Below, piece by piece: positions 11,194-51,853 of a stretch of 64,000 nucleotides of DNA. This DNA comes from Myxococcales bacterium. GTDB lineage: Bacteria > Myxococcota_A > Polyangia > Polyangiales > DASUME01. The translations under genes were made by a program, and so were the position numbers. Below the pieces are notes generated by a model that made no database searches, had not been told where the DNA came from, and was given only the letters and a program-made list of their open reading frames with translations. The stretch covers positions 704,001 through 768,000 of the forward strand of contig JASGJH010000001.1 of the NCBI GenBank assembly GCA_047601445.1, read 5' to 3'. Position 1 is the stretch's first letter, and each line of letters begins with the position of its first letter.

Positions 11194-12675
11194 ATGGAGA
11201 TTAAGCAGCAGCTACGGCTCTCACAACAGCTCGTGATGACGCCACAGCTGCAGCAGGCCATCAAACTGCTCCAGATGTCTCGGATGGAGCTCGTCGACAT
11301 GGTTCGCGAGGAGCTCATGGAGAACCCGGTCCTGGAGGACACCCAGGATCAGGCGGACGGCATCCGGGCCGACCGGAGTGAACAGGCCGCCGAGCGGGCC
11401 GAGATCAGCACCATCGATCAGCAGATCAACGCCGACGACCGGGCGGTGGGGCTCGAGAACAAGGCCAGCGAAAAGAAGGCCGACGAGATCGACTGGGAGC
11501 GCTATCTCGAGAACCACGCGTTGCAGGCGCCACTGCCCTCGTTCCGCGGCGGTCTCGAAGACGAGATGCCCAGCTACGAGGCCACGGCCACGCGCGCCGA
11601 GGACCTCACCGATCACCTCACCTGGCAGGTGCGCATGAGCGACCTGCTCGACGACGAGAAGGGGTTCGCCCTGCTCGTGATCGGAAACCTCGACGATCAC
11701 GGCTATTTGCGCGTGGAAGGTGTGGCCGAAGAGGAAATCGTCCCCAGGCTCGCGGCCGAAGCGGGTCTCGATCCTGAAGACGCCGAAGAGGTGCTCAAGA
11801 TCATCCAGCGCTTCGATCCCGTGGGCGTGGGCTCACGCAGCCTGCGCGAGTGCTTGTTGATGCAAGCCGAGCACTTCGGGCTCGACCAGCTCGCCATCCA
11901 GGTGCTGGGAGAACACCTGCACAACCTGGAGAAGCGTAACTACCAGGCCATCGCCAAGGCGCTCAAGGTTACCGTCGAAGAGGTCTACGACGTTGCCCAG
12001 GTCATCTCCGAGCTGGAGCCACGCCCAGGGCGCAACTTCGTCAGCGAGGAGCCCCGCTACATCACCCCGGACGTCGAGGTGATCAAGGTCGGGGACGAAT
12101 ACTTCGTGCGCGCCAACGACGACGGCATGCCGCGCCTGAAGATCAGCAACTTCTACCGGGCCGCCATGCAGGGGGACCCGAAGGCCAAGGAGTACATCCA
12201 GGGCAAGCTGCGCAGCGCGCAGTGGCTCATCCGCAGCATCGACCAGCGCCGCAAGACCATCGTGCGCGTGACCGAATGCATCGTGGAGAAGCAGCGCGAA
12301 TTCTTCGACCGCGGCATCGACTACCTGAAGCCGATGATCCTGCGCGACGTGGCCGAAACCGTGGGCATGCACGAGAGCACGATCTCGCGCGTGACCAGCA
12401 ATAAGTATGTAAACACACCTCAGGGGCTGTACGAGCTCAAGTTCTTCTTCAACAGCGCCATCCGCCGCGAACACGATGATGACATCGCGTCCGAGAGCGT
12501 GAAGCAGGCGATCAAGAAGATCATTTCCGAGGAAGAAGCCAAGGAACCGCACAGCGATCAGAAGATTGTGGAGATCCTCGCGCAACAGGACATCGTCATC
12601 GCGCGGCGAACGGTGGCAAAGTATCGGGAGATGCTTGGCATCTTGAGTTCGTCGAAGCGCAAGAAGTACTTTTAA
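11194..12675 (+). CDS. rpoN: RNA polymerase sigma-54 factor
   Basis: MTPQLQQAIKLLQ, HESTISRVT, RpoN box ARRTVAKYRE; RBS AAGGAG. Confidence 0.98.
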   Translation: MEIKQQLRLSQQLVMTPQLQQAIKLLQMSRMELVDMVREELMENPVLEDTQDQADGIRADRSEQAAERAEISTIDQQINADDRAVGLENKASEKKADEIDWERYLENHALQAPLPSFRGGLEDEMPSYEATATRAEDLTDHLTWQVRMSDLLDDEKGFALLVIGNLDDHGYLRVEGVAEEEIVPRLAAEAGLDPEDAEEVLKIIQRFDPVGVGSRSLRECLLMQAEHFGLDQLAIQVLGEHLHNLEKRNYQAIAKALKVTVEEVYDVAQVISELEPRPGRNFVSEEPRYITPDVEVIKVGDEYFVRANDDGMPRLKISNFYRAAMQGDPKAKEYIQGKLRSAQWLIRSIDQRRKTIVRVTECIVEKQREFFDRGIDYLKPMILRDVAETVGMHESTISRVTSNKYVNTPQGLYELKFFFNSAIRREHDDDIASESVKQAIKKIISEEEAKEPHSDQKIVEILAQQDIVIARRTVAKYREMLGILSSSKRKKYF

Positions 12676-12717
12676 GACGTCCCGCCGGCGCGGTGCCGGC
12701 AAATCGGAGGGTTAGCT

Positions 12718-13029
12718 ATGAGAATCGCATTCACGTTCCGCAATCTCGATTCATCTGATGCGATCAAGAACTACGCCTCCGAAAAGCTCGCCAAAGTACA
12801 GAAATACTTGAGGGCCCCCCTCGACGCCGACGTCACGGTGTCGGTGGAGCGCCACTATCACCAGGTCGAAGTCGTGCTCCGCTCCGATGGCCATACCTTC
12901 GTGGCCACCGAGCAATCCGACGACATGTACAAGTCCATCGACATCGTGTCCGACACGGTGGAGTCCCAGATTCGTCGCACCAAAGGGGCCGAACAGGACC
13001 GGCGGCGCCAGGCCAACTCAGAAAAGTGA
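12718..13029 (+). CDS. hpf: Ribosome hibernation promoting factor (short HPF/RaiA)
   Basis: FRNLDSSDAIKNYASEKL, DMYKSID, QIRRTK; position downstream of rpoN. Confidence 0.92.
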   Translation: MRIAFTFRNLDSSDAIKNYASEKLAKVQKYLRAPLDADVTVSVERHYHQVEVVLRSDGHTFVATEQSDDMYKSIDIVSDTVESQIRRTKGAEQDRRRQANSEK

Positions 13030-13082
13030 ACCGCGCGCGATTGCGTGCGGTGAAATCCTAGGGTAATCGGCGAGCGCTGGTT

Positions 13083-13544
13083 ATGCGGCTCATCGACATT
13101 CTCAGCGAAGAGCGGGTTACGACGCGACTCTCGGTCTCGAGCAAAGACGAGGCCCTGAGGGCGCTGTCGCAGCTATTTGCCGAACGCGACCCCGCGCTCG
13201 ATGTGAACGTCGTCCATGAGGTGCTGTCCGAGCGCGAGCGCCTGGCCAGCACCGGCGTGGGCAGCAGCGTGGCCATTCCCCATGGACGCATATCGGCTAT
13301 CGATGACCTGCGTGCGGCCATGGCGATCAGCCGAGACGGTATCCCGTTCGAGGCCATCGATGGCGCGCCGGTGCGCATCATCATCGGCGTGCTGGCGCCA
13401 CAGCATCACACCGGCGATCACTTGAGGGTCTTGGCGCGGGTTTCGCGCCTGTTGCGGAACAGCGAGGTCCGAGAGGGCTTGCTGGGGGCGGAGGACGCCC
13501 ACGCTGCCTACGAGGTGATCGCCCGTGCCGACCGACAAGCCTGA
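13083..13544 (+). CDS. ptsN: PTS IIA (Ntr-type)
   Basis: ERERLASTGVGSSVAIPHGR with phospho-His; HLRVLARVSRLL. Confidence 0.9.
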   Translation: MRLIDILSEERVTTRLSVSSKDEALRALSQLFAERDPALDVNVVHEVLSERERLASTGVGSSVAIPHGRISAIDDLRAAMAISRDGIPFEAIDGAPVRIIIGVLAPQHHTGDHLRVLARVSRLLRNSEVREGLLGAEDAHAAYEVIARADRQA

Positions 13545-14544
13545 GGAATCCGCGCGGGACCAGCGTGCGCAGGGCGCAGTCGCAGACCGCGAGGCGTCAA
13601 GAGAGGTCCAGCGGGTTTCCGTGCGGGAGCTCCTCGAGCATCCGGATCTGCGCGAGGGCTTCACGTTGCGGGCCGGGGCTCCCGGGGTGGACCGCTTCAT
13701 CGACCACCAGCGGGTGCAGAAGTCTGGCCTGGTGCTGGCCATGCACTCCCAAGGCGTGTTGCCGCAGCGGATCCAGGTGCTCGGCGAAACCGAGATCAGT
13801 TATCTGGAGAGCTTGCCCGCGTCGGTGCGGGAAGAACGCGTCGTGTTCATGCTCTCGCTGGGCATGTCCCTGGTGGTGGTCACGCGCGGCGTGGAGCCGC
13901 CGCGGGCCCTGGTGGAGCACGCCGACCGCACGGGAACACCGCTCGTGATCTCGAGCCTGCGCTCGAGCGCCACCATCAATCGCCTGCACCATGTGCTCGA
14001 TCACGTGCTCGCGGCACGCACTCGCGTGCACGGCGTGTTCGTGGTGGTCCACGGCGTAGGTATTCTGCTCACGGGAGCCAGCGGCATCGGCAAGAGCGAG
14101 TGCGCGCTCTTCTTGGTGGAGCGCGGGCACCGGCTGGTGGCGGACGACCAGGTCGAGCTCACGCGCTTGCCCAACTCGACCCTGCTCGGGGCCCCGATCC
14201 CACTGCTGAAGCATCATTTGGAGATTCGGGGACTTGGCATCCTGAACATCCGCGACCTATTTGGCGCTACGGCGGTGCGTGAAGCGGCCCGGGTGGACCT
14301 GGTGGTCGAGCTGTGTCCCTTCCGTGACGACGAGTCTTACGAACGGCTGGGGCTCGACGACCAGAGCATCGAGCTGCTGGAAACCAGCGTCTCCAAGCTG
14401 CGGGTACCCGTGCGGCCCGGGCGAGATATGGCGGTCATCCTCGAGATCTCCGCGCGCAACCATCTGCTCAAACGTGAGGGCCTACACGGGGCGCGCCGGT
14501 TCGCCGAGCGGCTCGACCGAGAGCTCTTCCATCGTGACAAGTGA
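13525..14544 (+). CDS. hprK: HPr kinase/phosphorylase
   Basis: RIQVLGETE, GASGIGKSECAL, HRLVADD, LEIRGLGI, PVRPGR; start uncertain. Confidence 0.95.
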   Translation: MPTDKPEESARDQRAQGAVADREASREVQRVSVRELLEHPDLREGFTLRAGAPGVDRFIDHQRVQKSGLVLAMHSQGVLPQRIQVLGETEISYLESLPASVREERVVFMLSLGMSLVVVTRGVEPPRALVEHADRTGTPLVISSLRSSATINRLHHVLDHVLAARTRVHGVFVVVHGVGILLTGASGIGKSECALFLVERGHRLVADDQVELTRLPNSTLLGAPIPLLKHHLEIRGLGILNIRDLFGATAVREAARVDLVVELCPFRDDESYERLGLDDQSIELLETSVSKLRVPVRPGRDMAVILEISARNHLLKREGLHGARRFAERLDRELFHRDK

Positions 14545-14604
14545 CGCGGGCTCCAGACGCCGGACGACGACGTTGCACGTCGCAAAATTGAGTATGCTTG
14601 TGTC

Positions 14605-15462
14605 ATGAGCGCACAGCTCGTCATCGTCACGGGGCTGTCGGGGGCCGGTCGCACCACGGCCCTCAGAGTGCTCGAGGATCTCGGCTTCTATTGCGTCGAC
14701 AATCTGCCTCCGCGGCTCGCACCGGGGCTGCTCGAGCTGCTCGAGAGCGGCAACGAGGAGGTACCGGTGGGGCTCGGGGTCGACGTGCGCAGCGGCGTCT
14801 TCTTGGAGGGCGCCGGCGACGCGCTCGACGAGCTAGCCGCGCGCGGGTTTCCGCCGGAGGTGCTGTTCCTGGATGCCTCGGACGAGGCGTTGACCCGGCG
14901 CTTCAGCGAGACGCGGCGGCCTCATCGCCTGGCCCCGAGCGGGGATCTGCTGTCGGCGATCCGAGCCGAGCGCGAGCGCCTGGCGCCCCTGCGCCGCCGT
15001 GCCAGCCGCGTCATCGACACCACGCATCTCAACGTGCACGACCTGCGTCGCCAGTTGGTGGCCATCGTCTCGGGCCGACCCGACGGCATTCGCCTGGTCA
15101 CCCGCGTCGTCTCGTTCGGCTTCAAGTACGGCCTGCCGCAGGATGCCGACTTGGTGTTCGATCTGCGTTACCTGCCGAACCCCTATTTCGTGCCGGAACT
15201 GAGCGCCTTGAGCGGGCTCACCGAGCCGGTGCGCAACTACGTGCTGCAGACCGCAGAGGCGCAAGATCTACTCGAGGATTTGTCGCGCCTGTTGCAGAAG
15301 CTGCTGCCGCGCTACGCGGCCGAGGGCAAGGCCTATCTCACGGTGGCCATCGGCTGCACCGGTGGGCGGCACCGCTCGGTGGCCATGGCGGAGGCTCTCG
15401 GCGCCAAGCTCTCACACGGCGAGGTGGTGGTCGTGCACCGTGACGTCGAGAGGGCGAAGTGA
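14605..15462 (+). CDS. rapZ: RNase adapter RapZ/YvcJ family P-loop protein
   Basis: GLSGAGRT, EDLGFYCVDNLP, SFGFKYG, LPNPYF, IGCTGGRHRSV. Confidence 0.95.
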   Translation: MSAQLVIVTGLSGAGRTTALRVLEDLGFYCVDNLPPRLAPGLLELLESGNEEVPVGLGVDVRSGVFLEGAGDALDELAARGFPPEVLFLDASDEALTRRFSETRRPHRLAPSGDLLSAIRAERERLAPLRRRASRVIDTTHLNVHDLRRQLVAIVSGRPDGIRLVTRVVSFGFKYGLPQDADLVFDLRYLPNPYFVPELSALSGLTEPVRNYVLQTAEAQDLLEDLSRLLQKLLPRYAAEGKAYLTVAIGCTGGRHRSVAMAEALGAKLSHGEVVVVHRDVERAK

Positions 15463-22490: not shown

Positions 22491-22522
22491 GGGCGTGCAC
22501 TTGATAGCCATTGGAGTTCGCA

Positions 22523-23588
22523 ATGCAGCTGGAGCAGAGCACAGGCAAGGTCCGCGTCGCTGTCGTGGGGGCCACCGGATATACCGGGTCCGAGCTGCTG
22601 CGACTGATTCACGTGCACCCGCGAGCCGAGGTGTCGGTGGTGGCGGGGCACGGCAAGGCCGGTCAGAAGATCGCAAACGTCTTGCCCAACCTCCACGGTG
22701 TCTACGCGGGCGAGGTCGTGGCTGCGGATCCAGCCGCCATCGCGGCGCAGTGTCAGGCTGCTTTCTGTGGCTTGCCCCACGGAGCTAGCGCCCCCATCGT
22801 GCGGGAGCTGCGCGCGAAGGGCGTGATCGTGTTCGATCTTTCGGCCGACTTCCGGCTCAAGGATTCTCGCGGTCTATCGCGAGTGGTACGGCGAGCACGG
22901 CGCGCCCGAGCTCAACCCCCAGGCGGTCTACGGCCTGTGCGAGTTCGAGCGGGAAGCCATCGCCAAGGCCGACCTCGTGGCGGTCCCCGGCTGCTACCCC
23001 ACGGCCACGTCGCTGGCGCTCGCGCCGCTGGTCAAGGCCGGCATCATCGACCTCGACAGCATCGTAGTGGACGCCAAGAGCGGCGCCTCCGGCGGCGGGC
23101 GCGGACTCGCGGAGAGCTTCCATTTCTCTCAGCTGGCAGAGGGCTTCCGGGCTTACAAGGTCGGCGGGCTGCACCGCCATACCCCCGAGATCGAGCAAGC
23201 GCTGGGTAAGTACGCAGGGCGTTCGGTGCGTATCACCTTCACGCCGCACCTGGTGCCCATGATCCGAGGCATCCTCTCGACCTGCTACGCCAAGCTCACC
23301 CGGGACGCGAACCGCGAAGAGTGCACCGAGCTGGCGCGCGCCATGTACCAGGGGTCGCCTTCGGTCACCGTGCTCGAGCCCGGCGAAAACCCCGATACGG
23401 CCTGGGTCAAGAGCTCCAACCGCTGCTTCCTCTCGTACACCGTGGACAAGCGCACGGGCCGCGTCATCGCGCAGTCCGTAATCGACAACCTGGTGAAGGG
23501 CGCCTCGGGACAGGCCATCCAGTGCTTCAACCTGCGTTTCGGGTTCCCGGAAGGGACGGGGCTCGAGGGCGTGGGCACGTTCCCATGA
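22523..23588 (+). CDS. argC: N-acetyl-gamma-glutamyl-phosphate reductase; apparent +1 frameshift at 22862-22866
   Basis: GATGYTG and DLSADFRL in one frame; PGCYPT, KSGASGGGR, HRHTPEI, DNLVKGASGQA in the next; deleting one T restores a 354 aa ORF. Confidence 0.93.
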
Positions 23589-39395: not shown

Positions 39396-42300
39396 TTACA
39401 ATTGCTCGAGCAGGCCCACCCTGGACTTCGCGAGACTCAACGCGCGCCGATTTTCGGGTACATCGTTGAGGAATCTGCGTCGCATGGCGGGGTCGCTGAT
39501 CTTGGCGGCGCGCTCGGACAGCCAGGCGTGGCTCGATGCTACGAGCTGGTCGGCAGCTTCGGTCTTGGCTGCGGCGAGCAAGCACTCGATGCGCGCATTG
39601 CAGATCGTCATTCGCAGATCCGGGTAGGCGTCACCTTCAAGGGCTGCGCTGCCTTTCGCTGACGCGAGGTCGGCTTCCGAGATGCGGCCGAGTGCGAGCA
39701 GCACTCGAGAGTGCACGCTCGAGGTGTAGGCGTCGGCGTCGGGCGCAGTCTCGGGCAGAACAACAGCAAGCGCGCGTTGGCACGAGCGATCGGCTTCCTC
39801 GAGCTTTCCTTGCGCTAGCTGCGCTTCGGCGAGATGAGCGAGGGAGAACGCGTGCTCTCGGTGCATGCTTGGCCAGATGGCAAGGCCATCGGCGGAGGCT
39901 CGTAGGTAGTCCATGGCTTCGGTCAAGCGTCCTGTGTGCAATGCACATAAGCCAAGATTCTGCTGGTACATGACCCGATGCACAGCGGTCGAGCTCGGGG
40001 CCTCCAGTGCCTGGGCCAGGACGTCTTCGGCCTCGAAATACGCTCCGACCAAGAGGAGCCAGTAGCCTAGGTCGACAAAGGCAAGACTGAGCTCGTATGC
40101 CGCTCCTGCATCCTGAAACAGCGTCAGGGCCCTCTGCCCGTGCGCTATCGCGCTGCCGAGGTCACCCGCAAATCCTGCTGCCATCATGCACGCGCTTAGG
40201 GCATATCCGCGCGCGCGCAGCGAGTTTTCCGGAACGTGCACGGATAGTGTTGCCGCCAACAGGCGCTTCGCTAGCTCCTTGTTGCCAAGGATGAACATCG
40301 TGCGGGTCAAGGCGCCAAAAGCGATGGCTGCTTCGTAGATTGCGTCTGCCGGATCGAGGACATTCAACATTTCCGCACAGACACTCTCCATGCCCGGCAA
40401 ATCTTCACGTGCGAGCATGGCCTCTGCCAATGCGAGGGACGCGCGCCACCAACCCTCTGCCCCTACGGGCAGCAGTTCGCGGGCTCTCACCGCCCATGAG
40501 TGGGCCTTGTCGTCCTTCAACTGCCAGGCGAACGCGTGCGCGACCATCGCGCTGACCTCACCGAGTGCTCGCCCGTCGAGGCCACATGCCACGGCTCGCT
40601 TGCCGAGCTCTTCCAGGTCGGCCCATAAGTTCGTTTCGAACGCGCGAGCGACGGCCCTGGCGTAGGCCTGTGCGGCCCGTTCACGGGCCCCACCTCGATT
40701 CGAAATGCTCCGCCAGTACGGCTGGTTCGGTTACGCCCAGGGACTCGAGCCAGTCGCCTCCCAAACGATGGGCCAGGCTGCGCTCGCTTTCGGTGAGGAG
40801 GGCATAGGCCGCGTCGCGCACCAGAGCGTGGCGAAAGCCGTATTCGTTGGCATCACCGTCTCCGCGCACGAACACCAGCTCGCGTTCCACCAGGACGGTC
40901 AGCCAGCCCCTGAGATCGAAGCGCTTCGCTTGCGGTCCGAGTAGTGCAGTCACGCCGTCCGCTCGGAACTCGGCACCAAACACACTGGCAATACGCAGCA
41001 CGAGCTTGGCGTCTTCGCCAAGGGCGTCGAGGCGCGCTTGAATCGCGGCCAAAATGCTGTCGGGCAAGGAGTCGCCTGACTGACCCGCGCCGCCACTGCG
41101 GATCAACTCTTCGAGGTAGAAGGGGTTCCCGTCCGCGCGCTCGATCAGTCCCTTGCGTTGTTCGAGGCCCAGCTCGGCCTCCGGAATGGCCGCCAGAAGC
41201 CGCTCGCAGGCGCGGGGATTGAGCTTGGGGAGACGGAGCGCCAGAACTTCGCGCTCGGTCCACAAGCGGGGGAATTTGTCGTGAATCTCGGGCCGAGCGA
41301 AGGCGACCAGCAGCAGCGGCTGTTCGGACTGCCGCAGGTTGGCTTCGAGAAATTGCAAGCTCGCCTGATCGGACCAGTGCAAGTCGTCCATCATGATCAC
41401 CACGGGACGCTTTTGGCACTCTGCGGAGAGAAAGTTGAGCCAGCTCGTAAGCATGCGCTTGGCCAGGAGCTGGGGGTCGCTGCGCGCCATCTCGAGATCG
41501 GAGCCCGCGGCACAGGGAAAGGACAAGCCGAGCATCTCTCCGAAGTACTCGCTGACTTGCTGGGCCCGTGCGGCGGGTAGCACGGACGCGACCCGTTCGT
41601 TCAGGCGGGTGCACTTGGTCGCCAGTGAGTCGCCGGCGACGATGCCCGCCAGGCTCGTTAGGGCGGGCGCGAGCGCGGAGAAGGGGGCGCCGCTTCGCAG
41701 CGCATCGCCTGCACCCGTGAGCAAGGTGAAGTCGGTTCCCGTCTTTCGCAGGCGCTGCATGAGCTCGAAGCGCAGTCGCGACTTGCCCGCGCCCGCGGGG
41801 GCGGTCACTAGCACGGCGCGCGTGACGTACTCGTCCACGCATTCCCGGAACAGCAGCTCGATTTGCCCTAGCTCTCGGTCGCGGCCCACGAAAGGAGTCA
41901 GTCGGCCGAGCAGGGTGCGCGGTGCCTCACCGCCGAAGCGAATGCGCTCGAGGAAATGGCGATTTCCGACGGACCGCAGCTCGAAGCGCGCCTCGAGCAA
42001 GGATACGCTGGCTTCATCGAGCCGGATCACGCCCTGGCCGGTTTCAACGAGCAGCCGGGCACCGTTCTCGAGCAGGCTCCCCATGGGCAGTCTACCCTCG
42101 ATCACGGCCCGCGCGGTCGTCACGACCAGAGGAGAGTCCGGCAAGAGCTCACGCAGGGCCAACGCGCAGTGCGCTGCCGCGATCGTCTGCTCGTGCAGCG
42201 CCTGGTAACGGTCGAGCAACAGCACGATGCTGCCATCAACGAGCCGCTCGTAGCGTGCGCCGTGGCGGTCGAGGAGGACGTCGAGAATTTGCGCGAGACG

Positions 42301-43258
42301 TTCGTCGGAGTACTCGTCCGTCTGCGCCGCGAACACCGCGCTCAGGACCCGTTGCTGGACACGCGGCCGCAGCGAGGGCACGTCGCTACCGCCCGCCCTC
42401 AGCTCCTCGCTCAGCAGGTCGATGGAGATGGCGGCCTCCGGGCCCGCCGCGTCGATGCGGCGCAGCTCGGCCCCGATCGCCGCATAGGAGGGACGGTTCG
42501 CTGCGACCTTCTGGAGCATGGTTCCGAGCAGGTGTCCGAGCGCGTCCGGCACCTTGGTGCGCAGGGAGCCGATGGCCGGGGGCTGCTCGAAACAGATCTT
42601 GGCCAGGGTCGCGAGCGCCGTATCGCTCTCGAAGGGGGAGACGCCACACATGCACTCGAAGAGCACGCTGCCGAGGGAGAACACGTCGGAGCTCACCTCG
42701 AGCGTTCGCAGGCCGCGCGCCTGCTCCGGGGACATATAGAGCGGGGTTCCGAGCACGACTCCGCTGCGTGTGAGCGCGTCGGCTTCGTCGACCCGTCGTG
42801 CCAGGCCGAAGTCGAGCAGCTTGGCGTCCGCGATGCGACCGGCCGGCAAGAAAATGTTCTCGGGCTTGACGTCCCGGTGGATCACGCCGCGCTGTGCAGC
42901 CGACGCCAGACCATCGACGATGCGCATGGCGAGGGTGACGAGGTCATCGAGCCGCAGCCAACCTTTGCGCAGCCGGGCCGCCAGGGTCTGGCCCTCCAGC
43001 CACTCCATGACCAGGTAGGGCTGACCGGTGACCGCGCTGCCGTGGGCGATGTAGCGCACAATGCTCGGGTGCTGCAGCTCCGCTAGGAGGGGCGACCTCA
43101 CGCTGAAAGCGTCCTTCGTCGACGCCACCTTTGCCGTGGAGGATCTTGACGGCCACGGGCTTGCCGTCGAAGAGGTCGCACGCACGGTAGACCGCTCCAA
43201 AGCCTCCGGACCCTACTTGCTCGGCAATTTCGAAGCGCTCGGCCAGCAGCAACGCCAT
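39396..43258 (-). CDS. Ser/Thr kinase - degenerate cyclase-like - STAND/AAA NTPase - TPR protein; two apparent +1 frameshifts (about 43090 and 40699)
   Basis: GSGGFGAVY, VAVK, HRDVKPEN, DFG, YMSPEQ; FVGRDREL, APAGAGKS, MMDDLHW, GNPFYLEE, FRHALVRDAAY; helical repeats; three ORF pieces join to about 1286 aa. Confidence 0.85.
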
Positions 43259-43354
43259 GGAATCAGCAGGAATGGTAGGCGATTTGGCCGGGGCCGAATA
43301 GCGCGCCCGGAGCAGGACCACAGGAATGCCTATGTAGGAGCTGCTCGTTACCGA

Positions 43355-44671
43355 CTAGTTCACGCTGCGCAGCAGCTCGAGCATCTTGTCGGCTTCCACG
43401 AATTCGGTGACGCGGGCATGTTCGTTTCCAGCGCTGTCGTGCAAAACCACCAGGGGCAGACCGCGCGCGCCATAGCCGCTGAGCCACTCGCGACCGCGCG
43501 CCACGTCGTGGCCGGGGCTGAGGTCGACCTTGACCTTCACGAAGCGCGAGATCTCGCTGATCACGCGTGGGTCGCTGAAGGTGTGGCGCTCGAGCTCGCC
43601 GCAGGCCTGACACCAGCTGGCACCAAAATCGATGAGCATGGGAGAAGCCGCCGCCTTGGCCTTGGCGCGTGCGCTCACCAGGTCGGCCTCCCAGCCCGAG
43701 TGCGTGGGCTTGGCTTCCAGGCGTCCGAGCATCAGCAGTGCACCGAGGCTCACCGCCGCGATGCCGAGGGTCTTGCGCGTGCGGTCGAGGCTGCCGCTCG
43801 AGAAGCTCAGGTGAATGGCGCCCAGCGCGAGGCCCGCGATGATGCAGCCCGCGGCCACATAGAGGAAGCCAGCGCTCGCGGTGATGGCCGTGTAGCCGGG
43901 CAACCACGCGCGCACGAAGTAGAGCGCCGACGCGATCATCACCAGGCCAAAGGTGCTCTTGACCCACTCCATCCAGCGTCCGCTCTTGGGCAGGGCCACC
44001 GCGAAGGTGCCCACGATCCAGAACAGCAGGCCCATGCCGAGCGAGTAGCTGATCATGCACGCCGCGCCGAAACCGATGTTGCCGGTGGTTCCGATCCACG
44101 GCAGCAGCAGCCCGAGCACGGGGCCCACGCAGGGCGCGGCGATCACCGAGCTGGCCATGCCGAGCACGAACGCCCCGCGGTAGCCAATGCCGCCCATATC
44201 GCTCAGCTTGGTGGTCAGGCTGTGGGGGAGGGCCAGTTCGAAGGCCCCAAACATCGAGAGTGCCATCGCCACGAACACGGCCGCGAGCCCGAAGGCGATC
44301 ACCGGATTCCCCAGTTCATCGCCGAACACGCCGCCGGTCAGGGCGGCGCCCACTCCGAGCACGCTGAAGAGCACCGTCATGCCCGCCACGAACGCCGTGG
44401 AGAGCAGCGCACCCTCCGCGCGGCTCTGGACCTTGCGTGCGCCGAAGACGCTGACCGTGATGGCGATCATCGGGTAGACGCACGGGGTGAGCGAGGTGGC
44501 GACGCCGGCGACGAACGAGAGCGCGAGCGCGCTACCGGTGCTGCCGCCCTCGAGGGCGCTGCGGAAGGCCGCCGCCATGCCGTCGTCGGCGTGGGCGAGG
44601 CTCGGGGCGAGTACGCCGAGGGCACCCAAGGCGTAGGCGAGCGAGCTGAAGAGGGAGACGAAGAGACGCAT
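43355..44671 (-). CDS. dsbD: DsbD/CcdA-type thiol:disulfide interchange protein with C-terminal thioredoxin domain
   Basis: SLTPCVYPMI, APCVGP, LPKSGRWM, FGASWCQAC. Confidence 0.88.
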   Translation of the reverse strand: MRLFVSLFSSLAYALGALGVLAPSLAHADDGMAAAFRSALEGGSTGSALALSFVAGVATSLTPCVYPMIAITVSVFGARKVQSRAEGALLSTAFVAGMTVLFSVLGVGAALTGGVFGDELGNPVIAFGLAAVFVAMALSMFGAFELALPHSLTTKLSDMGGIGYRGAFVLGMASSVIAAPCVGPVLGLLLPWIGTTGNIGFGAACMISYSLGMGLLFWIVGTFAVALPKSGRWMEWVKSTFGLVMIASALYFVRAWLPGYTAITASAGFLYVAAGCIIAGLALGAIHLSFSSGSLDRTRKTLGIAAVSLGALLMLGRLEAKPTHSGWEADLVSARAKAKAAASPMLIDFGASWCQACGELERHTFSDPRVISEISRFVKVKVDLSPGHDVARGREWLSGYGARGLPLVVLHDSAGNEHARVTEFVEADKMLELLRSVN

Positions 44672-44823
44672 CACTTGCCGTTTATAGCCTGAACCCGAGG
44701 CAGCACGTGTGCCTTCGCGGGTAGGGGCCCGCGCCCCCACTTGGATCGGCGGCTGGGGGACGGCGACCCCATCTCACTCGCACCTACGTCGCGAAACCAG
44801 GAGGGTTTCGGGCACCATCGCGT

Positions 44824-44839
44824 TGGCCCGAGCATTGCT
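44824..44839 (+). promoter_or_regulatory. Sigma54 (-24/-12) promoter
   Basis: TGGCCCG-AGCA-TTGCT matches TGGCACG-N4-TTGC; RBS GGAGG at 44867, ATG at 44878. Confidence 0.75.
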
Positions 44840-44877
44840 GTCTTGGGGCAGTGGTGGCTTGGGCTCGGAGGCTAAGC

Positions 44878-47163
44878 ATGGGTCGATTCCAAACGGTGCG
44901 ACGAGAACTAACCGGTCTATTGCTTGGCTCCCTGTTGTTGGGTGCGGGCGCTACGGGCTGTACGACGGAACCGAAGGACCAGAGCGTGTTGCCTGGCGTC
45001 AATTCGGTGGTGTTCGTGAAGCGTGCCTACCTCAAAGAGGACGGCAGTCACGAGGTCACGGGTGGCATGGGGCAGGTCTTCGACTACGACCGCTACAACC
45101 CCGGTGAGGGAGCGGGCCTGTTCGTGCTCACTCCACCGTCGCCGAACGGCAAGCTGCGCAACCTGACCGAGAACTTCAAGGGCGTGGACATCAACGGTCT
45201 CGACCTCTCGTTCGACGCGAAGAAGGTCGTGTTCTCGATGCGCACGGCGGATGACAACCGCTACCACATCTACGTGGCCAACGTGGACGGCACGGGTGCG
45301 GTCCGCCAGCTCACCATGCACGACGCCGACGACGTGCAGCCCATCTTCCTGGCCGGTGGACGCGTCGCCTTCGTGACGAACCAGCCCTTCACCGAGAGCG
45401 GCACTCGCGCGGACGAGTACAACCACGGCCGCCGCGTGACCCAGCTCGCCACCATCTCGGAGGCCGGCGGCGACGCAGATCGACGTCTGTGTTCGCAGAA
45501 CCTCTCCCACACCACGGGCCCTTTCGCCATGTCGAACGGCCTGGTGGGGTACTCGCGCTGGGAGCACTTGGGGCCGACCAACGACCTCAAGTTGTTCGCC
45601 ATGCGCCCCGATTGCACGCAGATGCGCGCCATTGCGGGCCAGCACGACAAGCCCTTCAACAGCCTGGTCCAGGTGCGCGAGACGGCGCCCGGCGAGTTCC
45701 TGGGCATCGCCACCACGCGCGAGGGCACCATCCAGTCGGGTGCTCTCATGCACGTGAGCGTGCCGCACCCGAACACCGGCGACGGCGCGGGCATCAACTT
45801 CTTCGACGAGCAGCGCGCGCGCTTCCAGAACCTCACGCTCAACGTGCCGATGGACATGACCTCGCCACCCTCGGGCGTGGGCCGCTATCGCTCGCCGCAC
45901 ATGCTGACTGGCACCGAGAAGGTGCTGGTCTCCTGGGCCGATGGCGACGTGAACGAGCGCAACGAGCTGGCGGGCACTGCGCCCAACTTCGGGCTCTATC
46001 TGTACGACCCGGGCAAGGGCAAGCGCGAGCTCGTGTACGACGACCCGTTGCTGTGGGACTTGTATGCCATCCCGGTGGTCGCGCGCGCGGAGCCCAACCC
46101 GCTGCCTGCGGTCAACGAGGGAACCTACGACCTCAGCATGCCGGCGACCATCGGCTCCATCGACGTGCGCAACACGTCGCTCTCGGAGACCGTATCGGGT
46201 GGCCAGCTCGACAACGTGGACCTCGGTGAAGCCCTCAAGCAAGCCCAGCGTGTGCGCGTGATCGAGGGCTTCTCCTCCGAGATCGGCAGCGTGGGTCAGT
46301 TTGGTCTCACGATGCACGAAGGTGCCGCCATCCTGGGCGAGCCGCGCGTGTACCCAGACGGTTCCTGGCGCGCGCAGGTGCCGCCGTACATTCCGATGCA
46401 CCTGCAGCCGATCGACCGCTTCGATCTGGCGATTCGGAATCAGCTCCTGTGGATCCAAGCCATGCCTGGCGAGAGCCGCGTATGTGGCGGCTGCCACGAG
46501 AACCGCACGGGCGCCGTGCAGGGTATGACCACCGTGGCCGAGCGCTTCACGGAAAACCTGGTGAAGCCCGCGGCCGAGCGTCTGGAGCTGCCCTGGTACG
46601 CAGCCACCACCGGAAAGAACGTGCAGGACGTGCTCGACGCCAAGTGCGTGAGCTGCCACGCGGGTGGCGCGAACGATCCCTTTGCTGGCCAGACCTATCG
46701 CGTGATCGTGACGGTCGAAGAGGGGCCGATGGAAGGCGAAATGCTGACCTACGACATCCCGATCCTCGACCTGTCGTCCAGACCCCTCACCGCGTACTAC
46801 GAGAAGGAAGCGGTGACCTATCCGGCCTCGTACATCAGCTTGCTGTTCCCGTCGGCGATGATGGGTGAGATTCGCGTGGAGGGAGCGCCCGTGGAATGGG
46901 TGGTCCCGGGCAACGCGCGCGCCAGCCGCTTCATCGCCAAGCTCAACGTCAACGCGGTGCAGTATCAGGACGGCGCCGATGGCAAGCCGGTGCTGACCGA
47001 GACCGATGAGTGGGCGTTCCCTGGCAAGGGGCACCCCGAGGACAAGGGCGTGACGCTGACGCGTGAGGAGCGCCTGACCCTGATTCGCTCGATCGACTTG
47101 GGTGGTCAGTACTACTCGCGGCGCAACGTCCAGGGCGCAGGCGAAATGATCTACGAACCGTGA
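44878..47163 (+). CDS. Hydrazine synthase alpha-like lipoprotein (TolB/PD40 propeller, HZS-alpha middle domain, 2 CXXCH)
   Basis: Lipobox GATGC, LSFDAKKVVFS, YSRWEH, DGSWRAQVPP..PMHLQPID, PGESRVCGGCHE, CVSCH. Confidence 0.75.
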   Translation: MGRFQTVRRELTGLLLGSLLLGAGATGCTTEPKDQSVLPGVNSVVFVKRAYLKEDGSHEVTGGMGQVFDYDRYNPGEGAGLFVLTPPSPNGKLRNLTENFKGVDINGLDLSFDAKKVVFSMRTADDNRYHIYVANVDGTGAVRQLTMHDADDVQPIFLAGGRVAFVTNQPFTESGTRADEYNHGRRVTQLATISEAGGDADRRLCSQNLSHTTGPFAMSNGLVGYSRWEHLGPTNDLKLFAMRPDCTQMRAIAGQHDKPFNSLVQVRETAPGEFLGIATTREGTIQSGALMHVSVPHPNTGDGAGINFFDEQRARFQNLTLNVPMDMTSPPSGVGRYRSPHMLTGTEKVLVSWADGDVNERNELAGTAPNFGLYLYDPGKGKRELVYDDPLLWDLYAIPVVARAEPNPLPAVNEGTYDLSMPATIGSIDVRNTSLSETVSGGQLDNVDLGEALKQAQRVRVIEGFSSEIGSVGQFGLTMHEGAAILGEPRVYPDGSWRAQVPPYIPMHLQPIDRFDLAIRNQLLWIQAMPGESRVCGGCHENRTGAVQGMTTVAERFTENLVKPAAERLELPWYAATTGKNVQDVLDAKCVSCHAGGANDPFAGQTYRVIVTVEEGPMEGEMLTYDIPILDLSSRPLTAYYEKEAVTYPASYISLLFPSAMMGEIRVEGAPVEWVVPGNARASRFIAKLNVNAVQYQDGADGKPVLTETDEWAFPGKGHPEDKGVTLTREERLTLIRSIDLGGQYYSRRNVQGAGEMIYEP

Positions 47164-47180
47164 AGGAAGGGAGGAAGACC

Positions 47181-48086
47181 ATGAACAAGCTCCAAGCATC
47201 GTTGTCGTTCGCCGTCCTGGCTCTGGCCCTTTCGCAGGGCGCCGAGGCCGAGGCCCAGCAGATCCCCGATACGCGCGAATACAGCCGTCGCGGCGAGATC
47301 AGCCCCAACACCACGGCTCCCAGCATCGCGCAGATGATCGCCACCATTCAGAGCGGTTCACCCGAGAGCCTCAAGGCCACGCTGGAGTACGGCGAGCGGG
47401 TGGTGTGCCAGGAGTGCGTGCCGCTGCTCGAGAAGAAGTTGCTCGATAGCGGCGTGCCGCGTGTGCGCGAGATGAGCGCCTGGTGGCTGCGGCGCCAGCC
47501 CTTCGCGGCGCCCGCGCTGGTGATGCGCCTGCGCAAGCTGGTGCGCACCGACGCCGACCCGGTCAGGCGGGCGAGGGCGGCCGAGGCGCTCGGCGAGTTC
47601 ATGGATCCGTTCGCGGTGGGCGAGCTGTCCGACGCCGCCATGGCCGACACCGATCCCAAGGTGCGTGTGGCCGCCGTGCACGCGATTGCTCGGCTGAACA
47701 ACGACGCGGGCTTCGCCGTGCTGACGGACACCCTGAGCGATGCCGACACCACCGTGAAGATCGCCACGCTCGACGAGCTGGTCAACATCGGAGCCTTCCG
47801 CGACCACGGAGCACTGATTGCGCTGCTGGGCGACACGAACGCCGAGGTGCGCACACGGGCTGCCCGGCTGTGCGGCGAGTACCGTGTGGCCGAGGCTCAA
47901 ACCACGCTGATCGCGATGTTGGAGGGCGATTCGGCCTCTCAGGCACGCAAGGCGGCGGCCTGGGCGCTGGGCCGGGTAGGGGCCGCGGAAGGACAATCCG
48001 CGCTCGCCGAGGCCTCGGGTCGGGAGCAGGAACAGGGTGTGCTCGACGCCATCAGAATCGCCCAGCGCATGCCGCTAAGACTCTGA
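47181..48086 (+). CDS. Secreted HEAT-repeat protein
   Basis: Signal peptide; repeats DPVRRARAAEALG, DPKVRVAAVHAIA, NAEVRTRAARLCG, ARKAAAWALG; CQEC. Confidence 0.85.
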   Translation: MNKLQASLSFAVLALALSQGAEAEAQQIPDTREYSRRGEISPNTTAPSIAQMIATIQSGSPESLKATLEYGERVVCQECVPLLEKKLLDSGVPRVREMSAWWLRRQPFAAPALVMRLRKLVRTDADPVRRARAAEALGEFMDPFAVGELSDAAMADTDPKVRVAAVHAIARLNNDAGFAVLTDTLSDADTTVKIATLDELVNIGAFRDHGALIALLGDTNAEVRTRAARLCGEYRVAEAQTTLIAMLEGDSASQARKAAAWALGRVGAAEGQSALAEASGREQEQGVLDAIRIAQRMPLRL

Positions 48087-48131
48087 TCGCACTCCGAATC
48101 CCGATACAATCCCCGGGTGCATCCGAGTTCC

Positions 48132-51100
48132 ATGAACCAACGGTCTTCCAGGCTTCGCTCGAGCGCGCCCGCGGGCGGAAGAGCCCGCATCGTTAGCGCT
48201 CGAGGCCGCCTGGCCGCGCTGCTCGTCAGTCTGCTGTACGCCGGTGCTTGCGAAGAGGCGTCGCCACCGGCGTTCACCTACTACGACGATCGCGTGGCGC
48301 CGGTCATCGGTGTGGGCTGCGTGCAGCAAACCACGGGCTGCCATCTGGCGAGCCCAGCGCAGACCGCCGTCGGAAATCTCGACCTCTCGAGCTACGACGC
48401 GCTGATGCGCCGCTCGGATGTGCTGCCGGCTTCGGGCCCCTATCCCGTGGGGCAGCTGCTGCTCAAGGGCGGCGACCCGGTGGACATCCCGGTGCAGACC
48501 TTCGACGCGCCGGACCCGGCGCACCCGAACGATCGCTTCGTGCCGATCACCACCGACATCCGGCACGCGGGCGGTAGCCTCTTGCGCATCGGCTCCGACG
48601 GTTACGCGCAGCTCAAGAGCTGGATTAACCAGGGCTACCGGCGCGACGGTGCCGTCGTCGAGACGCTCAACATGAGCAAGGGGTTCTGCACCTCGGGCCC
48701 CGGGCAGCACACTGGCTTCGATCCCAACGTGGCGCCCACCGACCCGAGCTACGCCTCCTTCGTGGCCAAGGTGCAGCCCGTGCTCCTCAACCGCTGCGCG
48801 GGGTCTTCCTGCCACGGCTCGCGCATCGCTGACCTCTACGTGAGCTGCGGTGAGAGCGAAGCGGAGAAGCGCTGGAACTACTTCGTGGCGGTCTCGCACG
48901 TGGATTCCACGGTGTCGCTCTCGGAGATCCTGCGGCGCCCGCTCTCCAAGGTGCGCGGCGGAACCTTCCACGAGGGAGGTACCATCTTCGCGGACACCGA
49001 CGACGCGGACTACAAGACCTTGCGCGCATGGGCCGAGGAGCTCGCCGGGCGGGCCCCCGAAGTGGTGAACTACCAGCCCACCGACATCGGCCTGCGCTTC
49101 TTCGGCAACTACGTGCAGCCGACGATGGTGCGCAAGGGGTGCATGTTCGGCAACTGCCACTCGCCGTCGATGTTCCACGACCTACGCCTGCGCACCGGCT
49201 CGCAGGGCACGTTCTCGCGCATCGCCATCGATCGGAACTACGAGGCCGCGAAGCTGCTGCTGGCCACGGATTCCGCGGATCCCAACGACAGCCGCATCAT
49301 CGCCAAGAACCTGTTCGCCCCCGACAAAGGCGGCAAGGGGCTGACCCATCGCGGCGGCGCGCTGTTCGAGGACTTCGCCGAGCCGGCGCGCAAGAGTTCC
49401 TGCGAGGGCATCGAAATCAACGCCAGCACCGATCTGAACAAGGCGCCCGCCTACTGTGTGTTCGCGGCCTGGCATGCGCTGGAGCGTGATCTCGCCATCG
49501 GCAAGGGGGAGCTCCAGCAAGGGCCGAGCTACGGCCTGGTGTGGGTCTCCCGTCCGCTCGGGGTCGGCGATCCGCGTGACTTCGACACCTATCGTCCGGG
49601 TGCGGATCTATTGCTCGGAGAGCTCACGCTCGACGCGAACGGCAAGCCCAGCGTGAGCGGAGGCAGCAGTTTGCTGGCCGGCTGCGGGCTCGATTCCAAG
49701 ACCGCCGACGTGCGTGGGCCAACGGTGTCCTGGGACGGCAAGAAGAATCGCGTTCTCCGCGCGCGCCTCGGCGGCTGCGCCGCTGCGTCTCTATGAGGCC
49801 AACGCCGACGGCTCCACCTGTGCACCTTTGACGGGGACTGCGTCGCCCGCGGCGGATGGCAACGGCATCAAGATGCACGACTTCGAATCCGGCCTACGCG
49901 CCCGACGGTCGATTGGTGTTCGCCAGCACCCGCGGCAATCTCCAGGGCGGCTACGCCTACCAGGGACCGCAGCGCACGCCCTCGCAGCTCGCACCCAACG
50001 CCAACCTGTACGTGTTCGCCCCCGCCGAGGGCGCGGTGCGGCAGCTGACCTTCCTGCTCAATCAGGAGATGATGCCGAACTTCATGGCGGATGGTCGCGT
50101 GATCTTCACCGCCGAAAAGCGTGCGCCCGAGTTCTTCCAGCTCGCCGGCCGCCGCATGAACCTCGACGGCGGTGACTATCATCCGTTGATCGCCCAGCGG
50201 GGCAGCGTGGGCTTCGCCCAGGCCACCGAGTTCGTGGAGCTCCCGGATCGCAACCTGGCGCTCGTGGCGTCGAACGCGGGCAACCGCGATGGTGCGGGCA
50301 GTATCGCCATCGTCAACCGCTCGCTCGGGCCCGATCAGAACGATCGCGATCCCAACGACCGCTACTTCTTGCACGCCATCCGCTTCCCCGCGCCGGGGGC
50401 GCTGGCCGGCCAAGCGGGCGCGTTCCGCTCGCCGGCGAGCTTGCCGTCGGGTTGGATGGTGGTCTCCTGTGACCCGGACGCTACGGACCTCACCCAGGGC
50501 AACTTCGACTTCGACCTGTGCGCCTTCGATCCGCGCACCGGGGCCGTCGAGCACCTGATCGGGCAGGCCGGTCGCGCCGAGGTCGAAGCCGTGGCCGTGT
50601 ATGCGCGGCCTCAGCACGGTGTCTTCCAGTCGCGTCCCGATGAGGCCAACGCCAACACCAGTGTGGACGTCGCTCAGACCGATGCCGAGGTGCACTTGGC
50701 CGATTTCCCGCTGCTCGCCACGCTCTTGTTCTCGAACACCCGCACGGGTCGGCCGCTCGACCCGCGCGTCGAGGGCGTCGAGATCTTGGAGTCCCTGCCG
50801 CCGCCGCCCGAGGCCACCGACTTCAGCGCGCTGAACGCGAGCCAGGTCACCCAGGACAGCTTCGGTCCGGTCTTCACGAACTACGAGTCGCTGGGGCCGA
50901 TCGCGCTGAACGACGATGGCTCCACCAAGTTCCGCGTGGCGGGCGGGCACCCGATCCTCTACGCGGCCACGGATGGCAAGGGACGCGTCCTGCCCTTCGA
51001 AGCCGAGGGGGGGCCCTTCACGGGCGACATGATTCAGCGCGAGGAGATGCAGTACTACCCGGGCGAACGCAGCAACCAGGGCTTCCGCCGCGAGCTCTTC

Positions 51101-51232
51101 AATGGCATGTGCGGTGGCTGCCACGGGTCCCTCACGGGCTACGAACTCGACGTGGCGGTCGACATCGACGTGCTCACCCAGGCCTCCCAGACGATTGCCA
51201 AACCGGACCCCGCTGTCGACTTGGTTCGCTAG
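48132..51232 (+). CDS. Multiheme hydrazine synthase alpha-like lipoprotein with three N-terminal cytochrome c-like domains; two apparent +1 frameshifts (49745-49749, 49885-49889)
   Basis: Lipobox YAGAC; CVQQTTGCH, CAGSSCH, CMFGNCH, CGGCH; PD40 motifs VSWDGKKIAFS and DFDPAYAPDGRLVFASTR after repair; about 1032 aa. Confidence 0.72.
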
Positions 51233-51304
51233 TGATCTGCTTCAGTTGCCGAGCAAAGCTTATGCTACGGTTCGGTCCGTCCTTCTGAGTCGCCAGGGCC
51301 GTCT

Positions 51305-51853
51305 TTGCCGCTTCCAACGCAACTCTTGCTGACGTTTGCCTCCGGCGTCCTCGCTGCGCTCGCAGCGCGCACCGACCTACGCGGCAGCCCCAAGCCGGCG
51401 TTCGTGTCGCGCGCGTTTTACGCCTACCTGCTCTACGTGGCGCTCGTGATGGTGCCGGTCTCGGCGTACTTCTACGTGTTTCACGGGGACTGGTTCCTGC
51501 TCTACCTGGCGGACACGGAGCGCGTCCCAAGCGCCTTGGCCCTGGTGGGAGGCCTGCTCGAGGTGGGCCTCGGGGCGGTCGGTTTTCTGATCGGGGCCTC
51601 CATGGTGCGCACGCAGCGCGACCAGTGGGCGGGGGCGGCGATCGGGGCAACCCTCTCGTTGGCCCTGGGCATGCTTCCAGTAGTGCGAAATCGGCTCCTG
51701 GTGGTGGGGAGCTACCGCCAGTACCACGGGGACTTCGGGCTGAGTTCCTATGGAGGTGCACTCTTGCAGGGAACCCTGGTGATGTCCCTCTGGATGGTGC
51801 TCGGGCTTGCTTTCTTGGTGTACCGGCTGGGGCCCGGAGCGCGTCGCGGTTAG
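51305..51853 (+). CDS. Hypothetical integral membrane protein
   Basis: About five TM helices, HGDWFLLYL; TTG start. Confidence 0.7.
   Translation: MPLPTQLLLTFASGVLAALAARTDLRGSPKPAFVSRAFYAYLLYVALVMVPVSAYFYVFHGDWFLLYLADTERVPSALALVGGLLEVGLGAVGFLIGASMVRTQRDQWAGAAIGATLSLALGMLPVVRNRLLVVGSYRQYHGDFGLSSYGGALLQGTLVMSLWMVLGLAFLVYRLGPGARRG

Follow-up and report, generated by a model that had tools for sequence, protein, structure and literature searches.

A conserved three-gene unit of two HzsA-family lipoproteins and a HEAT-repeat protein in myxobacteria

We describe three adjacent genes in the genome of a Myxococcales bacterium (a single contig of 9.5 Mb, 66% GC), located in a stretch of 64,000 nucleotides (G000:C1:704001-768000) that is called the window throughout. 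Two of these genes encode paralogous lipoproteins of the family of HzsA, the alpha subunit of hydrazine synthase, which we name A1 and A2, and the gene between them encodes an exported HEAT-repeat protein. The conserved unit is formed by these three genes, A1, HEAT and A2 (the trio). Homologues of HzsA from organisms other than anammox bacteria have already been published, and the trio adds to this family a conserved but uncharacterised variant that comprises three genes. Motifs in the two lipoproteins suggest that an A1/A2 pair likely carries six hemes, two in A1 and four in A2. The reading that we favour, with about equal measures of confidence and doubt, is that the trio would be a lipid-anchored, six-heme, multi-electron oxidoreductase of the envelope of aerobic myxobacteria, and not a hydrazine synthase.

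Family membership and fold of A1 and A2

A1 and A2 are homologous over 466 columns with 23% identity (hhalign probability 99%), and the lipobox cysteine of A1, Cys28, is invariant in all 45 aligned homologues, in agreement with the two paralogous lipoproteins described in the first-pass annotation, which had been made from the window's sequence alone. The HZS_alpha domain (PF18582) proposed for both proteins was detected in A1, with an E-value of 4e-12 and 46.9 bits, above the gathering cut-off of 26.6. A2 gave no HZS_alpha match in Pfam and a weak one in NCBIfam (E 2.5e-5), and both proteins scored far below the 800-bit cut-off of NCBIfam NF052339 (50.9 and 22.4 bits). The membership of A2 in the family is based on profile and fold, not on the Pfam HZS_alpha domain. 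The beta-propeller predicted for both proteins from PD40 motifs is present in both, with PD40 itself above the Pfam cut-off in the last part of A2; A1 has no PD40 match in Pfam, and its propeller, which is six-bladed, is clear from the structural model.

AlphaFold models were obtained with a mean predicted local distance difference test (pLDDT) of 80.8 for A1 and 87.4 for A2, an intact orthologue of 1,017 amino acids from locus L001 standing in for the broken A2 of the window. The best Foldseek match of both models was HzsA of 'Ca. Kuenenia stuttgartiensis' (5C2V chain A), with an E-value of 1e-26 and a template modelling (TM) score of 0.61 for A1, and with 3e-22 and TM scores of 0.37/0.48 for A2, where it came ahead of TolB. 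The HzsA layout first suggested from motifs is thus also seen in the folds. A family profile of 59 rows aligns nearly end to end with HzsA (residues 23-772, E 5e-89), and the wider family is large, with 8,373 proteins at E <= 0.001 counted as 50%-identity representatives. A VIA-align search with the whole A2 model returned propellers only and hardly probed the N-terminal repeats.

The reading frame of A2 is broken in the assembly, as had been noticed, by two insertions and not by a single frameshift: comparison with four relatives places one extra A near 49749 and another near 49889. The two halves share one frame in 21 of the 22 related loci that hold both, the exception (L028) being broken at many places. 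Frameshifts were also observed elsewhere in the window, in an argC-like gene (about 22500-23585) and in a kinase-AAA gene (40681-43321). Since other genes of the window are affected in the same way and the halves of A2 are in frame in relatives, the insertions are probably assembly errors. We also considered that A2 is a pseudogene, which is unlikely given the intact frame in relatives and the invariant motifs.

Heme motifs and the alpha-I site

A1 and A2 share with HzsA the six-bladed propeller, the HZS_alpha middle domain and the first heme motif, at 15-18% identity. At heme alpha-I of HzsA, Tyr591 is the proximal ligand while His587 and Cys303 bind zinc (PMC12607021 and PMC12758564); Cys303 itself is missing in the Scalinduaceae. 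In A1 the corresponding motif has the context CGGCH-E-x-R, with an Arg at His+3 and a two-residue gap where HzsA has Tyr591. A Tyr at His+4, the position of Tyr591, was found in none of the 45 close and 28 class-wide A1 rows and in none of the 50 A2 rows. The position of Cys303 is occupied in A1 (residue 256) by H, F, E or other residues, never by Cys, and in A2 by Arg675. These alignments show that A1 and A2 have lost the equivalents of both Tyr591 and Cys303.

A1 also shares with HzsA a C-terminal heme domain. Its second heme motif (C590/C593/H594) is invariant, and H719, which aligns near the distal His772 of HzsA, is present in 45 of 45 close rows and 26 of 28 class-wide rows; of the two paralogues, only A1 has this second motif with its distal His, and A2 lacks the C-terminal heme domain. 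Further residues of A1 are invariant or nearly so (D179-E180-Y181, H211, W228, H230, R460, E463 and E468). The monomer model places low confidence in two of these conserved loops, as would be the case for loops that become ordered by heme or a partner. Invariant Arg and Lys residues of A2 lie on the face that matches the conserved one of A1.

A2 differs from HzsA by three additional heme-type repeats in its helical N-terminal 440 residues: C47-x6-C54-H55 with H129, C207-x4-C212-H213 with H265, and C322-x4-C327-H328 with H391. All motif Cys and His residues and the three distal His residues, which sit in a His-x-Gly-Gly-type context, are invariant in 50 of 50 rows, while the Cys spacing of repeat 1 ranges from x6 to x8 across the class. 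Repeats 2 and 3 are related with an hhalign probability of 99%, and repeat 1 with 92-95% over about 25 columns. The first-pass annotation had recognised the CGGCH of A2 and had missed these three putative heme domains; adding them to the other heme motifs of the two proteins gives the likely total of six hemes per pair.

An unlikely alternative is that the CX4CH and CX6-8CH motifs of A2 form disulfides or metal sites, in which case the pair would hold three hemes and the N-terminus of A2 would be structural. The repeat region of A2 itself has no Pfam match, the structure search with the whole model hardly reached it, and A2 has further invariant Cys residues that are probably in disulfides, all of which would fit this explanation. 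It accounts poorly for a Cys...Cys-His motif that recurs three times in helical domains, each time with a distal invariant His, and for related repeats that match the Pfam family PccH (E 6e-5). In addition, the second motif of A1 has the spacing CX4CH in place of CX2CH in 4 of 28 class-wide rows, which indicates that the two spacings interchange, and CX4CH is a described heme motif in the part of PMC11492766 consulted. Cytochrome c clusters are among the Atlas neighbours (score 0.91, 28% of members), which we take as a lead only. We consider the heme reading of the repeats the likely one.

The HEAT-repeat protein and its predicted contact with A1

The protein encoded between A1 and A2 matches Pfam HEAT_2 (E 7e-25), reads as signal-peptide-like at its N-terminus and contains the CxxC motif CQEC, so it is the secreted HEAT protein with a CxxC reported earlier. 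Six of its residues, E69, C76, C79, R96, W101 and W102, are invariant in 37 rows. An ESMFold2 model of A1 (residues 34-752) with the HEAT protein gave an interface score (ipSAE) of 0.79, against 0.00 for the best control; 116 of 157 solved complexes attain the mark used, as do 2 of 215 mismatched pairs, counts that are rough for custom alignments. The runs share at least 44% of contacts, and the pLDDT of the partner is at least 82. On the side of A1 the predicted interface covers residues 141-150, 196-201, 170-185 and 467-473, the last two segments lying beside the invariant loops. The model supports binding between A1 and the HEAT protein and, with the HzsA fold and the co-occurrence of the genes, it agrees with the earlier proposal of a heteromeric heme system outside anammox, composed of two HzsA paralogues and a HEAT protein.

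The HEAT protein might instead be a maturation factor whose ExxExxxCxxC end reduces or holds apo-cytochromes, with A1 and A2 then acting alone or as a pair, a possibility that we rate as rather improbable. Its invariant CxxC is not followed by His, as would suit such a role, and a motif scan of the genome with a crude pattern revealed no convincing candidate for a CxxC protein of the CcmH type. The protein also has a weak likeness to CpcE/CpcF and NblB (E 1e-8 to 2e-4), but these lyase matches are generic HEAT matches, and the equivalog cut-offs of the CpcE/CpcF phycobilin lyases are far from reached (22 and 21 bits vs 330 and 220). Moreover, the predicted partner, A1, has canonical heme motifs, while paralogues of A2, the protein with the unusual motifs, occur without an adjoining HEAT gene.

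Conservation and boundaries of the unit

Of 29 related loci, 26 have HEAT after A1 and 24 have A2 after HEAT, and the exceptions lie at contig ends. In other orders of the class Polyangia the order A1-HEAT-A2 is kept behind mutS, without dsbD or the membrane gene alongside. The gene order expected from the window therefore holds across relatives. A1 was matched in 111 of the 251 class genomes (44%), a count that includes the window's genome (G000) and the unpublished G485. A2 was matched in the same 111 genomes, with 3 further weak partial matches, and an orthologue of HEAT (E <= 9e-35) again in these 111, with 7 further weak generic matches. In 301 genomes of the phylum, full-length A1 matches (E <= 1e-82) are confined to this class, and the others are short (E >= 8e-15). 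The trio is patchy by family: 45/48, 23/37, 13/26, 12/44, 4/21, 0/17 and 0/12. Its orthologues occur in the cultured Sandaracinus amylolyticus, and no cultured Polyangiaceae appeared among the best 120 homologues of one search. The single informative record from a cluster look-up belonged to the Nannocystaceae.

The two genes that flank the trio are not part of it. The first-pass annotation had noted a membrane protein after A2; we rejected it as a subunit, since its presence is independent of the trio: all 21 of the family f3 genomes have this gene but 4 have the trio, and 16 of 17 genomes of family f64 have it but none has the trio, although its absence in families f68 and f11 may be a limit of sensitivity. 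The dsbD gene adjoins the membrane gene directly, without the trio, in 5 of 12 loci around the membrane gene, which indicates that the trio is a cassette that has entered or left the space between two ordinary neighbouring genes.

The same data could suit a redox or gas sensor, or an envelope electron buffer, in which O2, NO or redox state would be read by the hemes and signalled through the propellers to other envelope proteins. We give this second explanation somewhat under half the weight of an oxidoreductase. The trio occurs in one copy and shows the conservation of a housekeeping module, there are no recurring substrate-handling neighbours (the flanks are dsbD, mutS or variable genes), and binding surfaces are commonly formed by propellers and by HEAT repeats. 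Against a sensor, no transducer gene is linked, and the membrane gene next to the trio occurs independently of it; six hemes with an invariant cluster of Tyr, His and acidic residues would also exceed the usual needs of sensing.

A2 paralogues were also detected apart from the trio. They keep all four motifs, and their neighbours, inspected by eye, presumably include amidohydrolase-like, tryptophanase-like, cysteine synthase-like and alternative-complex-III-like genes.

Nitrogen chemistry and co-occurrence with other genes

Traits were tracked in 80 hand-picked class genomes, 35 carriers of the trio and 45 non-carriers, which are kin and not independent. No hzsB or hzsC was found in the gene sketch of the window, as already reported, or next to the trio in those distant loci that were mapped, but the genome does contain an unlinked HzsBC-like gene 7.7 Mb away (G000:C1:8455419-8458364; L125:4420-7365). 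It encodes a propeller and di-heme protein of 982 amino acids that matches HzsB (E 8e-6) and HzsC (E 1e-4). With this single protein as query, 7 of 35 carriers and 9 of 45 non-carriers gave a match, and the gene does not track the trio. Its relatives are present in 16 of the 80 genomes, often in several copies.

Nor is there tracking for nosZ-like genes of clade II (11 of 35 carriers vs 7 of 45 non-carriers). The gliding-linked NF033768 is present in 80 of 80 genomes and does not discriminate, and squalene cyclases occur in 13 of 35 carriers and 23 of 45 non-carriers. The heme-copper oxidase family was found in all 35 carriers, which indicates aerobic hosts. In the window's genome no narG, nirK or nosZ scored above cut-off, the NrfA and NirS profiles gave short weak matches only, and the PF13447 (HAO) profile gave no match, either there or in control genomes. 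Among genomes of family f64, where the trio is found in 0 of 17, three of the four tested (G301, G356 and G362) had no heme-copper oxidase match, and they may represent an anaerobic lineage of the class.

N-N/NO chemistry had been among the possibilities first named for this locus. We considered an N-N or N-O chemistry like that of hydrazine synthase, with the unlinked beta-gamma-like protein as partner. The HzsA fold of both models and the presence of the HzsBC-like gene speak for it, as do distant two-repeat A2-like genes that directly precede genes of this kind. The loss of the Tyr591 and Cys303 equivalents, the failure of the HzsBC-like gene and of nosZ to track the trio, and the NF052339 scores (51 and 22 bits vs a cut-off of 800) make it very improbable. 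Hydrazine synthesis by the trio is thus unlikely.

The distant genes just mentioned belong to other Myxococcota (L073, L074, L075, L077 and L079), and their products have a C-terminal heme domain together with two repeats of the CX3-4CH type. They lie directly upstream of propeller genes with 2-3 heme motifs, one of which matches HzsB and HzsC. The pair looks like the ancestral layout of alpha and beta-gamma, which is lacking in the trio.

Promoter and heme maturation genes

A sigma54-like promoter upstream of A1, predicted in the first-pass annotation, was found again. The site at 44824 is the only TGGC-N7-TTGCW match on the plus strand of the window; the genome holds 245 such matches, so a single site alone means little. 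A relaxed sigma54-like motif is present upstream of A1 in 16 of 28 loci, compared with 2.6% of 3,000 random windows of 290 bases, the loci being kin and the control windows not matched for intergenic DNA. L023, where A1 begins the contig, was dropped from this count, and two other loci are truncated. The GG-N10-GC element of a -24/-12 promoter is conserved upstream of A1, consistent with a predicted sigma54 promoter. We identified no sigma54 activator for the trio. Elsewhere in the window, at 11194-15459, lies what we take, from sequence features, to be a cluster of rpoN, hpf, ptsN, hprK and a rapZ-like gene.

The divergent dsbD gene encodes, as annotated, a DsbD-thioredoxin fusion (DsbD_TM, E 3e-45), with the motifs CVYP and CVGP, which hold two membrane Cys, and WCQAC. 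It resembles the DsbD/CcdA thiol reductant transporters in the DsbD_TM domain with two membrane Cys and in the thioredoxin CxxC, and differs from them in that no N-terminal alpha domain was detected and in that the gene is not tied to the trio. The proposal that it is a dedicated maturation helper of the trio was rejected: it is the only DsbD_TM match of the genome, and it adjoins the membrane gene where the trio is missing. CcmF-like and CcmC-like genes and a CcmE are present in the genome. They are scattered, ccmF-like near 6.615 Mb and ccmC-like near 3.407 Mb, and the CcmE (G000:C1:464516-464818; L131) has a CPSKY heme-binding motif of the CxxxY type, a type known from Desulfovibrio and archaea according to a section of PMC9084895.

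Features of the locus

The coordinates of the trio and its flanks are collected in Table 1. Neither Pfam nor NCBIfam contains a family that matches the 182-residue membrane protein. The segment 51305-60682 of the window, which begins with this gene, is a conserved block that persists where the trio is missing; it continues with a DUF4398 gene, a gene for a DUF4398-TSP3-OmpA protein, whose C-terminus has a likeness to TraB below cut-off, a gene for an exported protein of 550 amino acids to which no family was assigned, and a convergent gene for a TPR protein of 1,785 amino acids.

Table 1. Features of the trio and of its flanking genes, in window positions
Feature	Position	Strand	Remarks
dsbD, transmembrane and thioredoxin domain	43355..44671	-	flanking housekeeping gene, outside the trio
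Sigma54-like -24/-12 site, TGGCCC-N5-TTGCT, TGGCCCGAGCATTGCT	44824..44839	+	about 40 bases upstream of A1
A1, HzsA-like lipoprotein, 761 amino acids	44878..47163	+	propeller, HZS_alpha middle domain, C-terminal cytochrome domain
A1 heme motifs	46483 (CGGCH); 46645 (CVSCH)		CVSCH in C-terminal cytochrome domain with conserved His719
Exported HEAT-repeat protein	47181..48086	+	HEAT_2; predicted to bind the A1 propeller
A2, HzsA-like lipoprotein, about 1,020 amino acids	48132..51232	+	N-terminal repeats, propeller, middle domain, CGGCH at 51110
A2 putative bis-His heme repeats (n=3)	48318..49350	+	CVQQTTGCH (CX6CH), CAGSSCH, CMFGNCH (CX4CH)
Membrane protein, 182 amino acids	51305..51853	+	flanking gene, outside the trio

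Relation to known systems

Hydrazine synthase belongs to anammox planctomycetes, and the host of the trio is not a planctomycete. In contrast to HzsA, the two proteins of the trio are lipoproteins, two paralogues and a HEAT protein stand in place of the beta and gamma subunits, and the hosts are aerobic. Hagglund et al. 2025 (PMC12758564) describe non-anammox HzsA homologues in clades I-IV. According to the portions of that paper available, these have in common with the trio a canonical first heme pocket, the gap at Ser590/Tyr591 and the lack of Cys303. They differ in that they adjoin fused beta-gamma genes and in their hosts, which are Planctomycetota, Desulfobacterota and a few others; His772 is missing from clade I. 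The main text of PMC12758564 does not mention the myxobacterial names looked for, HEAT or DsbD, while the HZS-A BLAST table of its supplement lists, in the part seen, at least 8 Polyangia matches that are not discussed. The available text also reports no top structural match to the HZS alpha subunit with another confirmed function. We found no description of the trio in the PubMed Central (PMC) open set and bioRxiv, a coverage from which subscription journals are mostly excluded.

The monoheme cytochrome c PccH (PF22297; 4RLR) is the other known protein with a weak likeness, both to repeats of the A2 type (at the E-value given above) and to the C-terminal heme domain of the family (E 9e-5). 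PccH is small and single-domain, whereas A2 has three copies of the domain, with widely spaced Cys residues, joined to an enzyme core with a propeller.

Proposed function and significance

In the oxidoreductase that we favour, encoded by three genes that are inherited together, the HEAT solenoid is predicted to clasp the propeller of A1 beside two invariant loops, D179-E180-Y181 and E463-S466-E468. Electrons would be stored and relayed by four bis-His hemes, of which the N-terminal repeats of A2 would hold three and the C-terminus of A1 one. The two hemes in the alpha-I position would have an ordinary His proximal ligand and could be ligand-binding or catalytic sites, with pockets that appear, from conserved residues, to be lined by invariant Tyr, His and acidic residues in A1 and by invariant Arg in A2. 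Most likely, the chemistry would take place at the cell surface or in the periplasm, where a small substrate would be oxidised or reduced in a reaction linked to oxygen or peroxide. The trio may be switched on through sigma54, and its hemes could be attached by the housekeeping Ccm system with the CxxxY CcmE, reductant coming from the single DsbD.

Several observations weigh against this proposal. The A2 repeats align with the C-terminal heme domain of A1 over 21 columns only, with a probability of 5-61%, and CX6CH and CX8CH are absent from the heme motif list in the part of PMC11492766 consulted. The CxxC of the HEAT protein lies outside the confident interface residues with A1. Ten loci (L091-L097, L099, L100 and L102, two of them on short contigs) have A2 paralogues with no A1 or HEAT alongside, which suggests that A2-type proteins may act alone. 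The heme-copper oxidase family is also present in 40 of 45 non-carriers, so this marker does not explain the distribution of the trio, and none of five marker families does so in the 80 class genomes. Finally, no dedicated electron donor or acceptor was found for the trio, and none is linked to it.

A bolder version, which we hold to be improbable, is that the trio represents a third architecture of the hydrazine synthase superfamily, a heterodimer of two alpha-type subunits in which a built-in wire of three hemes and a cap formed by the HEAT protein take the place of the beta and gamma subunits, hemes are attached at CX6CH/CX8CH motifs, and an N-O or N-N reaction takes place at the surface of aerobic myxobacteria. 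If it were true, the trio would offer an oxygen-tolerant model of the role of the HzsA ancestor in a cultured organism, S. amylolyticus.

The trio is a module with sharp boundaries, mostly present in one copy, that 44% of the sampled class genomes contain, and its wide Cys spacings allow the limits of cytochrome c maturation to be tested directly. Automatic 'hydrazine synthase alpha' labels in soil metagenomes (several JGI names among them) would wrongly imply anammox where such genes occur. The trio bears on the role of the HzsA family outside anammox and on the origin of hydrazine synthase.

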